Positions 1,705 to 59,326 are shown, numbered from the stretch's first letter. The stretch is 64,000 bases of DNA from Candidatus Sulfomarinibacteraceae bacterium (GCA_963741385.1 CAVUHO010000010.1:1639720-1703719), one strand, 5' to 3'. Notes: generated by a model from the letters alone, not told the origin. A program made the numbers and translations.

Positions 1705-1940
1705 GAGTTTTGAATTTTGAATTTTGAATTTTGAATTCCCGCCCGGCCAACCCTGTTCCGGGGCGCTCGAGTGCTCCGGGCGGTTTGTACCGTGTGCGGC
1801 GGCGGTGCCTGGCTCCGGCCCGCCGCGGGCCGCGTGCCTGGCATCCGCACGGGAAGCGCATGGGGAAAGGTGCAGTGTGCGGCGGCGGTGCCTGGCATCC
1901 GGCCCGCCGCGGGCCGCGTGCCTGGCATCCGCACTGGAAG
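1705..1940. repeat. Mosaic intergenic repeat: 5x 7-bp array, degenerate palindromic core, then an 83-84 bp tandem duplication
   Basis: GAGTTTT GAATTTT x3 GAATTCC at 1705-1739, with a core containing GCGCTCGAGTGCTC. GTGTGCGGCGGCGGTGCCTGGC..CCGCCGCGGGCCGCGTGCCTGGCATCCGCAC occurs twice (from 1792 and from 1875). Confidence 0.85.
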
Positions 1941-1961
1941 CGAGCACTGATACGGGCCGGC

Positions 1962-2675
1962 TCACAGACCGGGGACGCGCAGAATCAGATTGGGGTCGGG
2001 GCACAGTTCGAGATAGCGTTCGCGCTCGGACGGCGCTGCGACGCCGGGGTAATCGCCCCTCTTTTTTGGTTCCTCGCAGATGATCTGAAAGTGGAGGTGG
2101 GGGGGCCAGCCGCCGTTTTCGTGCACATCACCGACGGTGCCCAGCGTCTGCCCCGGCGACAGCTCCCGACCTGCATCCAGTGCGACGAGGGTGTTGCGGC
2201 TGAGGTGGCCGTACAGGGTGAAAAACCGTACGTCACCCAGCTCGTGTTCGAGGATGACGGTGGGGCCGTAGTCGCCGAGACCCTGGTTTTCGGCCAGTGA
2301 GTGGACGACAGCCGGCAACGGCGCCATGATCTCGGTTCCCTCGAAGACAAAGAGATCGATGCCGAGGTGGACGCTGCGGCGCTCGGCAGTGCCGTCGAAG
2401 AGGGGCGAGTGGCGGTAGAGCACCCGATCCTCATTGTAGCGGCCGATCCCCACCGGGATTCCGGAGGCCGCAATGCGCTCGAAGAGATACTGGGTGAAAC
2501 CGGCGACGTCGTTGATGTCGAGGTGGGAGAGTTCGGTGTTGGCTGCGGTGAAATCGAAGATCTCGAGCCGCCCCGAGCGAAGATCGAAGGGCACGACCGG
2601 GGCGATTGTCTTTCCACTCGCCTCGAGGGCGGCAACAACCGGGTTTTCCTGCATGGCGCGATTGTAGCGTGACAT
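1962..2675 (-). CDS. M23 family metallopeptidase
   Basis: HLGIDL (HxxxD) and PPHLHFQI (HxH) zinc motifs; YGHL...PGQTLGTVG is typical of M23. The ATG at 2675 is preceded by GGAGGA, while the ORF-track start at 2690 lies inside that RBS. Confidence 0.8.
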   Translation of the reverse strand: MSRYNRAMQENPVVAALEASGKTIAPVVPFDLRSGRLEIFDFTAANTELSHLDINDVAGFTQYLFERIAASGIPVGIGRYNEDRVLYRHSPLFDGTAERRSVHLGIDLFVFEGTEIMAPLPAVVHSLAENQGLGDYGPTVILEHELGDVRFFTLYGHLSRNTLVALDAGRELSPGQTLGTVGDVHENGGWPPHLHFQIICEEPKKRGDYPGVAAPSERERYLELCPDPNLILRVPGL

Positions 2676-2796
2676 GCGGAAATCCTCCATCCCGAGCCAC
2701 CCGCGGCCTCGAAGGGTTGGACTGGGTCAGTCGTGACCTTTGGGCGCTGGGATGGCGCCGACGGTATTTTCGGGAGGCGAACTGAAGTCTCTTATC

Positions 2797-58900: not shown

Positions 58901-59016
58901 ACCGGCATGAAGTCGAGCGGCAGCAGGAAGACCGCCACCGTGCCGAGGACCGTGAGGCTCAAAAGGAGCATCAGGGTGGCAACCGGACGATCCAGAGGAA
59001 TGTCGGTCAGGCGCAT
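55915..59016 (-). CDS. RND efflux transporter permease (second of a tandem pair)
   Basis: 1033 aa, 12-TM AcrB-like layout. It starts MRLTDIPLDRPVATLMLLLSLTVLG and has a conserved GMLVDNAVVVIENI-type TM4 motif. ATG at 59016 after GAGGAG. Confidence 0.9.
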   Translation of the reverse strand: MRLTDIPLDRPVATLMLLLSLTVLGTVAVFLLPLDFMPVVNEPEIDIEIPFPGAHPLEALREVLKPIEEEIATIPDVKRIQGNTQTGSANMQVMFDWGVDVDIKKMEVREAIDRARPLLPDTIGHISIRGDTDGGSSQVLAGRISAERNLAESWDLLDRRIGRPLERIKGVARVDLYGVEQQQVRIDLDLDALRRHGIEAGEVLRAVDAANHDVDAGVIRGDVVRYEVRTLTRFQSAREIADLRVGGDGLRIGDVAVVEMREPRLDYGRHLDRSFAVGIDIYKEPSANTIEVVDKALERIEEIKKDPQLEGINLLIWENQGEAIRNSLSGLRNAGIYGGILAVVVLHFFLRRFRTTLVVATAIPFSLLVTCGAMFALGAQFNVLTLLGLMLGVGMLVDNAVVVIENIHRYEGMGHPAPVAARLGAQQVALAVVASTATSIFVWSWLFVSERNTMVIMMGEVALTICLAVACSLLISLTFIPLAAARFSPAHDPQPGFVNRRLVPAYRRLLDWTLDHRLVTLTCLFAIAGSAAWPLSQIEKSGDMPEQTRDVSIFLRVHDDVSRDVLEGHIDQLEEWVYSRKDELGFEGVYSWYSEQGFCMTRVYLPESEANPEAVGKLRSQLRDGLPEIAGVSLEIGDRDNWRHRGGQDRRMVSVALHGEDPEYLEDLSTQVEERMRGLDHLEEVWGPTMNGTKELRLLVDADAAHSLDVTPRSVAEAVGFAFRGRRMRRFQGPDGEVEMVLGLPEDAQPGIDALADLPVPNRTGGTVPLSSVAEVTIARTPERIQREDRQTTQWVTAQFKKDEVTTDEAKALVEERMAGFTVPEGYSWDFGEWGHDRDEALGTMFRGVVLSLMAVILLMAALFESFTQPFAILITLMLAFFGAFWSLWLGGYDLNPIAFMGIIILIGIVVNNGIVLVDHVNSLRVAGVERRQALIEGCGDRLRPVMMTAITTIFGLIPLVWARATVAGAYIDSIAVVVIGGLATSTIFTLLALPVWYTTLEDVGAAVLAALPKRRGGRPVQIPASGVPTSPQ

Positions 59017-59026
59017 GACGGCTCCT

Positions 59027-59326
59027 CGAATTCGGAATTCGGAATTCGGAATTCGGAATTCCCATCCACCCACCGGGTTTCTGGCGGAAGTCGTACGGTC
59101 GGGGTCGTCTCGCCAGAAGAGGACCGAGAGGTCCAATGGGCGGCTTCGAGTTCCCGATGGCGATTCCTCACGGGGCCGGAGGCCGGCCACAGCTGACGTC
59201 TCTTGAGAGTCGATGCAACGGTATGAGGGCAGAAACTCTGCCTTTCAGGAGGAGCGTTTCTGTAGGGAACGTTCTGCGGAATACCGTCCGACAATTCCGA
59301 ATTCCGAATTCCGAATTCCGAATTCA
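59027..59326. repeat. Composite element bounded by inverted (GGAATTC)n arrays between the two RND genes
   Basis: (CGGAATT)x5 at 59027-59061 plus CCATCCACCCACC. A 230-bp core carries hairpins (GGCCGGAGGCCGGCC; CAGAAAC..GTTTCTG). The inverted array CAATTC (CGAATTC)x4 at 59292-59326 abuts the upstream TGA stop. Confidence 0.85.

Follow-up and report, generated by a model that had tools for sequence, protein, structure and literature searches.

Tandem heptamer repeats have been reported beside bacterial genes since about 1990, among them the STRR sequences of cyanobacteria, which Mazel and co-workers reportedly described as heptamers in that year. Contiguous 7-bp units also serve as operators; the omega repressor of pSM19035 binds direct and inverted WATCACW heptads. 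In Nostoc PCC 7120, 21 genes have (TTTTGAA)3-4 no more than 100 bases from their start codon or -10 box, TTCAAAA is found on the sense strand upstream of recF, and deletion of the heptamers alters reporter output (bioRxiv 10.1101/2022.06.06.494920). A Beggiatoaceae genome carries two to six copies of TAACTGA just upstream of start codons at each of 169 sites, for which translational regulation has been proposed (MacGregor 2015, PMC4679880), and at the cholera-toxin promoter PctxAB, TTTTGAT heptads recruit ToxT, ToxR and H-NS (bioRxiv 10.1101/2021.05.14.444153). More generally, in bacterial genomes rich in repeats, long simple-sequence repeats are reported to have heptanucleotide units most often, a pattern attributed to polymerase slippage (Mrazek et al. 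2007, via PMC4679880). Here we analyze thirteen AT-rich heptamer arrays, and the GC-rich palindromic modules joined to them, in a stretch of 64,000 nucleotides (hereafter the window; positions are counted from its first letter) from Candidatus Sulfomarinibacteraceae bacterium (GCA_963741385.1 CAVUHO010000010.1:1639720-1703719).

Extragenic palindrome families and small transposons offer a second set of comparisons. Repetitive extragenic palindromes (REPs) and bacterial interspersed mosaic elements (BIMEs) of enterobacteria, as well as the BOX elements of pneumococci, are extragenic mosaics of imperfect palindromes present in hundreds of copies at gene ends or within operons; REPs have a conserved GTAG and are linked to RAYT transposases. 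Miniature inverted-repeat transposable elements (MITEs) such as the Correia/NEMIS elements of Neisseria are characterized by target-site duplications (TA for Correia), many near-identical copies and terminal repeats of unique sequence. In Drosophila and other eukaryotes, the terminal inverted repeats of foldback transposons are themselves made of tandem subrepeats of 10-31 bp, in arms of kilobase scale, and we know of no bacterial counterpart. The repeats of the window combine heptamer repeats with REP/BIME-like mosaics, and we tentatively read them as old composite foldback repeats. We found no account in the literature of such repeats in Acidobacteria or Thermoanaerobaculia.

The arrays and GC-rich modules of the window

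Tandem Repeats Finder recovered period-7 arrays at all thirteen positions at which an initial annotation of the window had placed them, with 3.4-5.3 copies and 80-100% matches. A separate period-7 scan found 11 of the 13 outright, the other two (9275 and 24511) being altered by substitution or a 1-nt deletion. The recovered spans are 1703-1737, 9275-9309, 21116-21152, 21400-21436, 24511-24545, 24710-24747, 27368-27403, 31294-31321, 33456-33484, 37080-37114, 41189-41220, 59027-59064 and 59292-59326. With lengths of 26-38 bp and an A+T content of 57-83%, the arrays contrast with the window, whose G+C content is about 66% (61-70% throughout), and second-order Markov simulations of the window gave a mean of 0.04 AT-rich period-7 arrays of at least 24 bp, with a maximum of one, against the 13 observed. 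The three annotated pairs of inverted arrays are also real, and in one of them (59028-59060 and 59293-59325) the two members are 100% complementary. Some statements of the initial annotation needed correction. The arrays had all been described as intergenic or at gene ends, but array 27368 is not cleanly intergenic, being crossed by a stop-free open reading frame (ORF) at 25321-27699. Furthermore, the claim that essentially every gap longer than 150 bp holds an array was overstated: about 10 of 15 such gaps do, and those without one include 2727-3134, 10909-11131, 39100-39370 and 45596-45800.

The GC-rich modules that accompany the arrays were enriched over dinucleotide shuffles of the window. 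GCGTGCGGCGGAGGTGCC was present in 8 copies compared with 0.49 expected (up to 3 mismatches), GGCTCCTCTCGGGAAG in 8 compared with 1.27, and TTCAACATTGTT in 13 compared with 0.94; the full GAGCACTCGAGTGCTC palindrome was found in just 3 copies, compared with 0.48 expected. The annotated figure of 12 or more copies for the 18-mer of the core is reached only by including truncated copies from the 122-bp tandem repeat at 32911-33280.

Lineage of the repeat family

A scan for the 18-mer in one genome per species returned at least 111 loci, and comparison loci are cited below by their L-numbers. About 80 of those listed belong to metagenome-assembled genomes (MAGs) labelled Candidatus Sulfomarinibacteraceae or to closely similar Acidobacteriota/Thermoanaerobaculia bins. 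Among the matches listed, many Sulfomarinibacteraceae-type MAGs gave several loci and certain loci had multiple copies, and the other matches were single chance occurrences in unrelated GC-rich genomes. No listed locus was identical to the window; several were orthologous at 78-90% nucleotide identity, the orthologous stretches being 27733-32825 and 39333-41388 (L107 and L061), 40410-46142 (L093) and 55966-61803 (L104). By these sequence comparisons the window stems from a Thermoanaerobaculia acidobacterium close to Candidatus Sulfomarinibacteraceae, and the repeat family is lineage-specific and marks the Candidatus Sulfomarinibacteraceae MAGs (Acidobacteriota, Thermoanaerobaculia).

The window and 79 of the loci, 685 kb in all, constitute the family set. 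It contains 138 oriented arrays, that is, one per 5 kb. The GC-rich loci in 585 kb of unrelated metagenome contigs contained none, and 245 kb of non-family genome loci contained one. The metagenome control consisted of 108 unrelated loci matched by a generic-hairpin flank pattern, had no orthologue of the window among its matches and served as a negative control only. AT-rich arrays numbered 159 at period 7 and at most 35 at any other period from 4 to 12.

Anatomy of the repeats

Every array was oriented on its G-rich strand, so that its 5' side is the gene boundary and its 3' side the interior of the element. The consensus unit is YGRRWTT, with the variants CGGATTT, CGGAATT, TGAATTT, TGAGTTT and AGGAATT, and the commonest units are GGATTTC, GGAATTC, GAGTTTT, GAATTTT and GGAATTA. 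Arrays differ little in length (median 33 bp, interquartile range 32-35, 10-90% range 25-38, or about 4.5-5 units), and across the loci copy number does not vary freely, being confined to three to six units. Arrays are also depleted from coding sequence, in line with the initial annotation: 23 lie inside crude ORF calls, compared with about 108 expected.

The G-rich strand always runs from the flanking gene into the element. In 52 cases the C-rich head motif was present within 25 nt of an array on its inner side, compared with 5 cases on the outer side, and the interior most often opens with TCCGCCCAnCCCCCACCGAC..TGAGCACTCGAGTGCTCAGGGTGGGTGGGACC-GCGTGCGGCGGAGGTGCC. Consecutive arrays less than 400 bp apart showed the order G-array then C-array in 19 cases and the reverse order in none. 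The smallest elements, of about 105 bp, consist of an array, a GC-rich hairpin of 35-42 nt and an inverted array (for example in L002, L038, L058 and L088). In addition, similarity between the two arms of a pair exceeds that between random arrays (median 0.88 vs 0.71, p=2.4e-6), paired arms have irregular units in common, such as GAGTTTTGAGTTCTCAGTTTT in one element of L097, and the irregular pattern GARTTTTGARTTCTCARTTTTGARTTTT was found again at other loci and in other MAGs, including arrays 9275 and 21401 of the window. Irregular units shared by paired arms, together with a pattern that recurs across loci, argue for copying from a common template and not for independent slippage. Isolated arrays, with genes on both sides, account for 3 of the 138.

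Structure of the hairpin module

We aligned 83 distinct copies of the main GC-rich module, from GCGTGCGGCGGAGGTGCC through GGCTCCTCTCGGGAAG. The module, about 105 nt long, folds as a hairpin of 23 pairs in which 97.4% of the cells are canonical, compared with 41-53% when the 3' partner is slid by 1-3 columns. Compensatory alternatives on both sides were present at 8 of the 23 pairs, each in at least five sequences, and a conserved structure of the core, which the initial annotation had put forward for testing, is thereby supported by covariation. The pairing is asymmetric, with 212 G·U against 9 A·C, and the same helices are 86.7% paired on the complementary strand; a smaller sample of the palindrome next to the array, here called the head palindrome, gave 19 G·U and 2 A·C. 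This asymmetry indicates that the hairpin module functions as one strand with a defined polarity, in the form of RNA or of single-stranded DNA. Its polarity is fixed relative to the adjacent array; in co-directional spacers its orientation showed no bias relative to the flanking genes (22 vs 25), and the trend with GC skew was not significant (55 vs 77, p=0.07). Rfam gave no match at the gathering score over the whole window, and permissive E-values returned only generic miRNA-hairpin noise. Taken as a new structured element with strand-specific pairing and no Rfam match, the module is well supported. Tandem duplication of the module is seen in the window (three 122-bp copies) and in L058 (five copies), and outside genes the head palindromes and hairpin modules occur in variable combinations and tandem copies, that is, as a mosaic.

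We also considered an RNA stem formed between the two arms of a pair. Such a stem is predicted only where the G-rich strand is transcribed, and at 21110-21440 the pairing lies on the plus strand, antisense to both flanking genes, with none on the mRNA strand; this candidate was rejected.

Conservation of the arrays

Among the 53 arrays whose flanks could be matched, 46 (87%) had an array at the orthologous boundary in another MAG or species, and the 7 exceptions had other arrays or modules there and not clean empty sites. The modules between arrays vary far more than the arrays do. The unit sequence turns over between species while arm length stays constant. The spacer between the two RND transporter genes has GAATTCG/AATTCCG units in the window and AATGAGG/ATTCCTA in L104, and the BipA spacer has GAGTTTT/GAATTTT in the window and L093 and degenerate GAATCCG/GAGTTCG in L061 and L107. 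At one orthologous site (L048 compared with L101) an octamer array, GAGGCAGT, stands in place of the heptamers.

Copies of the element are diverged: their identity has a median of 80% in comparisons inside one MAG and of 79.8% across MAGs. Few pairs exceed 90%, and those within a MAG that reach 95% or more are tandem duplicates only. Since identity is the same within and between genomes and orthologous sites are kept, the family is old and mostly vertically inherited. The closest approach to a filled and an empty site is the pair L075 and L098: in L075 a spacer of 21 bp consists of a 3-unit array between two convergent stop codons, with no module, and in L098 about 360 bp of GC-rich modules lie between the first stop and the array.

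Between inward-facing arms lie ordinary genes (DUF924-like, EpmA-like and other housekeeping genes), with no transposase among them. The absence of a transposase from the window, as annotated, holds for 40 ORFs scanned against Pfam at E<=1e-5. A tblastn search for Y1 transposases with three approximate queries, covering a small part of each genome, gave nothing below E=0.18. The GTAG tetranucleotide is absent beside the palindrome, whose conserved flanks are GCGTGCGGCG and TCGGGAAG.

Placement at gene boundaries

Genes in the comparison loci were called with a crude GC3-based caller, in which stop codons are exact and start codons approximate. By this measure 56 arrays face a stop codon and 50 a start codon. 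Between 39 and 41 of the 56 stop-facing arrays begin within -10 to +7 nt of the stop, and the stop codon is often part of the first array unit (TGAATTTCGG, TAGAATTTCGG, TAGGAATTCGG, TGATTTCGG); the coding sequence just before these arrays bears no likeness to the repeat unit. Stop codons adjoining arrays are TAG in 19 of 39 cases (49%) compared with 64 of 382 (17%) in other genes (odds ratio 4.7, p=1.6e-5), which indicates that the stop codon is shaped by the junction. Examples of stops next to arrays are found in L048 (5945), L039 (3479) and L014 (962), and such a stop often corresponds to an altered first unit.

Start-facing arrays end 11-50 nt, by approximate start calls, before the start codon. 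Many show one layout, in which the array is followed by 5-8 nt, a TGnTAnnnT or TATACT box, 6-9 nt and ATG, and in others the box is 17-20 nt away from the array. Judged by their sequence, such starts are predicted to be extended -10 promoters of leaderless mRNAs in which the array would replace the -35 and upstream regions; examples are window 24745-24766 and starts in L009, L013, L020, L081, L091 and L109. Extended -10 boxes 6-9 nt before ATG at many genes suggest that leaderless mRNAs are common in this lineage. Within operons the array abuts the Shine-Dalgarno sequence, as at window 59027 and its orthologue in L104.

Two simpler roles were tried and rejected. An intrinsic terminator, made of a unique hairpin with a T-rich array as its U-tract, would suit 37115-37145, 41160-41185 and several loci well. 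Taken together, however, the stretches of 40 nt that precede stop-facing arrays have no more stable folds than the sequence behind other stops (median -8.9 vs -8.95 kcal/mol, p=0.78), and a scan for the terminator consensus called none at any array. The array usually starts at the stop codon itself, which leaves no space for a hairpin, and the GC palindromes are not terminators because they are followed by an A-rich arm and not by a T-rich one. The other candidate was a sigma-70 promoter within the array (TTGAAT-N17-GAATTT). A scan of 20500-38000 gave no promoter-like sites, and the commonest units, GGATTTC and GGAATTC, yield no acceptable -10 hexamer.

Heptamer arrays in viral contigs

In IMG/VR, (GGATTTC)3 was present at 22 viral loci and (GGAATTC)3 at 26, and none of these 48 loci had the 18-mer or the head palindrome. 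Several GC-rich viral contigs (L115/L123, which are one contig, L124, L125, L128 and L143) have 5-9 heptamer arrays each at gene junctions, with different units that include CGAATGT, ATTCGCG, GAGATCC, GAAGGAT, CTCTTAT and AACTGAG. Viral (AAATCCG)3-5, in the A-rich orientation, is often found on the sense strand 2-20 nt upstream of ATG, sometimes starting from the preceding stop codon; about nine loci show the sense-strand arrangement (L112, L113, L118, L120, L122, L123, L127, L129 and L131). In L125 an inverted pair, (GAAGGAT)4/(ATCCTTC)3, lies just before a ribosome-binding site. Most of the 26 (GGAATTC)3 matches correspond to a single conserved locus with three units, shared by related contigs of about 55% G+C; these matches are possibly coding, and we did not treat them as part of this phenomenon.

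Features of the window

Along the window, the first array (1703-1737, plus strand, TTGAATT units) has its outer edge toward the start of a minus-strand ORF (ATG 1697 or GTG 1679) and continues into a GC-rich core (1738-1958, plus) with a C-rich arm, a CTCGAGTGCTC palindrome and two 83-bp units each containing GTGTGCGGCGGCGGTGCC (1792 and 1875). The array at 9275-9309 (plus) is made of GAATTTT with the irregular unit GAATTCTCAATTTT, begins 19 nt past the stop of a GGDEF/EAL gene and is followed by the C-arm CCGCCCACCCACCC (9308-9324).

In the pair 21116/21401, the plus-strand array (21116-21152, GATTTCG x5) lies upstream of a minus-strand alpha/beta hydrolase gene, about 26 nt from its start (21089). 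Next comes the head palindrome (21153-21204, plus), in the order C-arm CCGCCCATCCCCCCACC, GAGCACTCGAGTGCTC, G-arm AGGGTGGGTGGGA. The hairpin module of about 105 nt follows (21207-21345, plus), with GCGTGCGGCG-GAGGTGCC, the TCAACATTGT stem and GGCTCCTC-TCGGGAAG, then a second 18-mer at 21328. The partner array (21401-21435, minus; AAAATTC on the plus strand) overlaps the stop of a minus-strand phosphofructokinase gene (21427-23697).

At the next pair, the plus-strand array 24511-24545 (GATTTCG) abuts the start of a minus-strand TauE-family gene, and the GC core (24576-24709) has the opposite orientation (minus), with a GGCTCC box, the 18-mer at 24640-24657 and the head palindrome at 24658-24710. 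The second array of this pair (24710-24745, minus; AAAATCC on the plus strand) ends 7 nt before TATACT, itself 6 nt before the ATG (24764) of a HAD hydrolase gene, a layout that, as read from the sequence, would be typical of a leaderless mRNA.

The plus-strand array 27368-27402 (GGAATTC) is at the natural C-terminal end of an S-methyltransferase/MTHFR gene and is followed by a head palindrome (27403-27455) and modules (27403-27561, plus) with 18-mers at 27458 and 27544 and a GGCTCC box at 27510. There is no stop codon at this array, so the ORF continues to 27699: in ORF 25321-27699 the S-methyltransferase and MTHFR domains end at about residue 659, and about 110 more codons are read across the repeat, from the array into the head palindrome and modules. 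Possible explanations are a genuine extension of the C-terminus, recent loss of the stop codon and misassembly within the repeat.

Downstream, the array 31294-31321 (plus, ATTTCGG) begins 10 nt past the MetH stop, is kept at the same site in L107 and L061, and is joined to a head palindrome, an 18-mer (31375) and a GGCTCC box (31405) within 31322-31420 (plus). In the minus-strand complex at 32816-33342, one copy of the module (32816-32905) is followed by a tandem run of three 122-bp hairpin modules (32911-33280) and then by a head palindrome (33267-33342). Next comes the array 33456-33483 (minus; AAATCCG on the plus strand), 68 nt upstream of the start of a tricorn-like protease gene (33552). 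Between this complex and the MetH array, 31518-32810 encodes an LpxC deacetylase fused to an N-terminal response-regulator receiver domain, which is unusual for an essential lipid A enzyme.

At 37068-37114 (minus) the G-arm GGGGCTGGGTGG precedes an array (37080-37114; AAATCCG on the plus strand) whose outer edge points toward the 3' end of a minus-strand rubrerythrin gene, past a GGCGCC-TGC-GGCGCC hairpin (37115-37145). Two Logan short-read contigs encoding exactly this rubrerythrin end about 50 nt past the gene, near the array, which is consistent with the repeats breaking assemblies. The array 41190-41220 (plus, GAGTTTT/GAATTTT) begins 13 nt past the BipA stop, after a CCGAAGGGC-TGAC-GCCCTTCGG hairpin, and is conserved, partly in degenerate form, in L093, L061 and L107. 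An isolated GGCTCCTCCCGGGAAG box (45643-45658, minus) lies in a spacer without an array.

In the last pair, array 59027-59061 (plus, GAATTCG x5) abuts the GAGGAGC and ATG (59016) of the downstream minus-strand RND transporter gene, and its perfect inverted copy (59292-59326, minus) overlaps the TGA of the upstream RND gene (59324-62584, minus). Four tandem gamma-glutamyltranspeptidase paralogues (48614-56533), of 60-75% nucleotide identity and with a period of about 1.8 kb, lie directly upstream of both RND genes. Just upstream of the gene for the membrane-fusion protein of the RND operon there is a perfect 33+33-nt palindrome, TCCGTTTCCGTGCCCTCCTCCGATTCCATCTCC and its complement with a 1-nt loop (63876-63942). 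The genes flanking the arrays of the window have ordinary housekeeping functions.

Other repeats also occupy spacers. A second, unrelated family, TGTCATCCCGACCGRAGGCCCGRAGGGCCGYAGCGGAGGGATC..., occupies 2798-2852, 2938-3135 and 10970-11051 in two spacers without a heptamer array, with 37-bp and 65-bp tandem copies and an 82-bp perfect-register palindrome. Arrays of 8-bp units are found in similar spacers of the window (10830-10897; 9367-9415 and 9639-9670), of L101 (6080-6400) and of L090. They include (GGAGCAGG)9 and (CTTTGCGT)4, the latter with its complement ACGCAAAG about 250 bp off, and in relatives (GAGGCAGT)n begins within the final codons of a gene, at a site occupied by a heptamer array in another species.

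Discussion

The architecture of the repeats, their orientation rule, the co-variation of their arms, the strand selection of the hairpin, the conservation of array positions and the placement of array edges at gene signals are all observed. On this basis our favored, if tentative, reading is that the spacers of the window hold old, vertically inherited composite foldback repeats that are now fixed, with arms that are useful or tolerated as AT-rich spacers. The ancestor of the family would have been a non-autonomous mobile element, of foldback/MITE or REP/BIME type, and its descendants would now be essentially fixed. In larger elements GC-rich modules, namely the head palindrome and one or more hairpin modules of about 105 nt, may have accreted on the inner side of the arm. 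Replication slippage or arm-to-arm conversion, under selection for length, would keep the arms homogeneous. The arms themselves might persist as an AT-rich, weakly self-complementary tract about one ribosome or RNA-polymerase footprint long, which could hold the GC core, with its strong folding, at a distance from stop codons, promoters and ribosome-binding sites, and at promoters the arm could provide AT-rich upstream DNA instead of a -35 element.

Comparison with described systems brings out both halves of this composite. As in Nostoc, the units are tandem, intergenic and 7 nt long, and TTTTGAA is the same repeat as GAATTTT, a major unit here; furthermore, the A-rich strand is the sense strand upstream of recF, as it is for start-facing arrays here. 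Unlike the present case, however, the Nostoc genome is AT-rich, only 21 genes have been reported for TTTTGAA, and no GC-rich palindromic modules, paired inverted arrays or stop-codon placement have been described. The Beggiatoaceae repeats are likewise intergenic heptamer direct repeats in 2-6 copies, at more than 100 sites per genome and a few nt from starts, and the AACTGAG/AACTGAA unit of viral contig L128 is related to TAACTGA. They differ in having a single unit, almost always forward upstream of starts with only one inverted set, and in lacking a GC-rich core and a link to stop codons; here, 50 start-facing arrays and about nine viral examples have the forward orientation just upstream of starts, and 56 arrays face stops. 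The heptad operators of PctxAB and omega resemble our arrays in their contiguous 7-bp units next to a promoter core, but each involves just one locus or a handful of plasmid operators and a protein known to bind there, as opposed to about a thousand sites per genome here (by extrapolation), half of them at stops.

On the side of the modules, the repeats resemble REP, BIME and BOX elements as modular, extragenic mosaics of palindromes with a variable number of internal modules. They differ from them in sequence and in their AT-rich tandem-heptamer arms, and neither the GTAG nor the RAYT link of REPs was seen. Like the Correia/NEMIS elements, they are short, non-coding, dense in intergenic DNA, bounded by terminal inverted repeats and able to bear promoter or processing signals; unlike in those elements, no target-site duplication was seen at the pairs inspected by eye, near-identical copies are limited to tandem duplicates, and the arms are tandem subrepeats. 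The likeness to foldback transposons is anatomical only.

Several observations weigh against the foldback reading. No target-site duplication was found by eye at the pairs of the window, L002, L038, L058, L088 and L104, no clean filled/empty pair came to light, so that two marks of transposition that the initial annotation had proposed to look for were not seen, and the 685 kb of the family set contained no autonomous copy. Since no transposase was found either, a mobile origin is suggested by anatomy alone. The TAG excess at array-adjacent stops is not predicted by a foldback model, and (GGAATTC)n, the second commonest type of unit, is partly self-complementary, which fits poorly with the proposed role as a buffer. 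Distances to start codons are approximate owing to the crude gene calls. Finally, the module-free arrays of viral contigs and of the L075 spacer fit independent signals.

The last point leads to a possible, though somewhat doubtful, alternative, in which the arrays are stand-alone cis-acting signals of gene boundaries and the GC-rich modules are separate selfish repeats lodged beside them. The arrays would then belong to the same class as the heptamers of Nostoc (TTTTGAA), Beggiatoaceae (TAACTGA) and the cholera-toxin promoter (TTTTGAT), all of which lie near starts or promoters, and the factor that reads them would bind DNA or RNA; at promoters it could be a nucleoid protein or an activator, and on leaders protein S1 or something similar. 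The look of an inverted repeat would result from a spacer being bounded by two genes, plus conversion between nearby inverted copies. This would explain why viral arrays, often just upstream of ATG, have no GC module (0 of 48 loci), why an array can stand alone in 21 bp in L075 and behind 360 bp of modules in L098, why array positions are conserved while the intervening modules vary, and why arrays are found immediately upstream of extended -10 boxes. However, about half of the arrays face stops, including both arms between convergent genes, and for these a role linked to starts or promoters fails; a single sequence-specific reader is hard to picture when units differ between orthologous sites and among viral arrays. 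Isolated arrays are also almost absent from the host set (3 of 138), which, like the co-variation of arms, speaks against this alternative. A bolder extension, which we consider unlikely, would make the arrays a genome-wide punctuation, a physical ruler of about 33 bp read by a dedicated host factor at both ends of transcription units. Viral contigs, perhaps from phages of these hosts, would copy the arrays, which would be related across phyla to the cyanobacterial (TTTTGAA) and Beggiatoaceae heptamers, and the GC-rich hairpins would be separate strand-specific RNA or single-stranded DNA elements using the arrays as landing sites.

Another view, that the repeats are active MITEs mobilized in trans by a transposase elsewhere in the genome, with the heptamer arrays as terminal inverted repeats, seems to us quite improbable. 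The geometry that the initial annotation recognized as that of a non-autonomous mobile element is borne out by the fixed polarity of the terminal inverted arms (19:0 convergent pairs) and their co-variation. The repeats are also small and non-coding, avoid coding sequence, form subfamilies in which different loci have the same irregular arm patterns, and reach a density of one array per 5 kb, all of which such an element would show. Against it, copies are about 80% identical, no more so within than between genomes, 87% of arrays recur at the orthologous site in another species, the inspected pairs have no target-site duplication, and no transposase was found between inward-facing arms or among the 40 window ORFs. 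Mobility, current or recent, thus finds no backing in old and positionally conserved copies, and current activity of the family as a mobile element is not supported. We regard as highly improbable that the arrays are plain, functionless microsatellites made by slippage, or at most contingency loci that switch a neighboring gene by copy number. Heptanucleotides are indeed given as the commonest class of long simple-sequence repeats (Mrazek et al. 2007, via PMC4679880), and units that are homogeneous within an array and different at orthologous sites do indicate turnover of the slippage type. This origin does not account, however, for a narrow length of 4-5 units, a repertoire limited to YGRRWTT, a fixed polarity relative to genes and modules, arms that co-vary and arrays conserved at orthologous sites, and the flanking genes are housekeeping genes and not surface or contingency genes.

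In practical terms, the repeats probably break short-read assemblies, and they create spurious ORF extensions in MAG annotation. For biology, they matter because heptamer repeats such as STRR, TAACTGA and TTTTGAA have so far no accepted function. The features that stand out are the length ruler of about 33 bp, the turnover of units at conserved sites, the capture of stop codons with its TAG excess and the hairpin of about 105 nt. This lineage constitutes a clean natural data set, with one array every 5 kb in a GC-rich background, a fixed length, a unit that varies between species and near-exact placement, and related species for comparison and the viral arrays add to its value. It makes two questions testable: whether the constraint on the arrays is one of length, of periodicity or of protein contact, and whether the arrays mark the starts and ends of transcripts.

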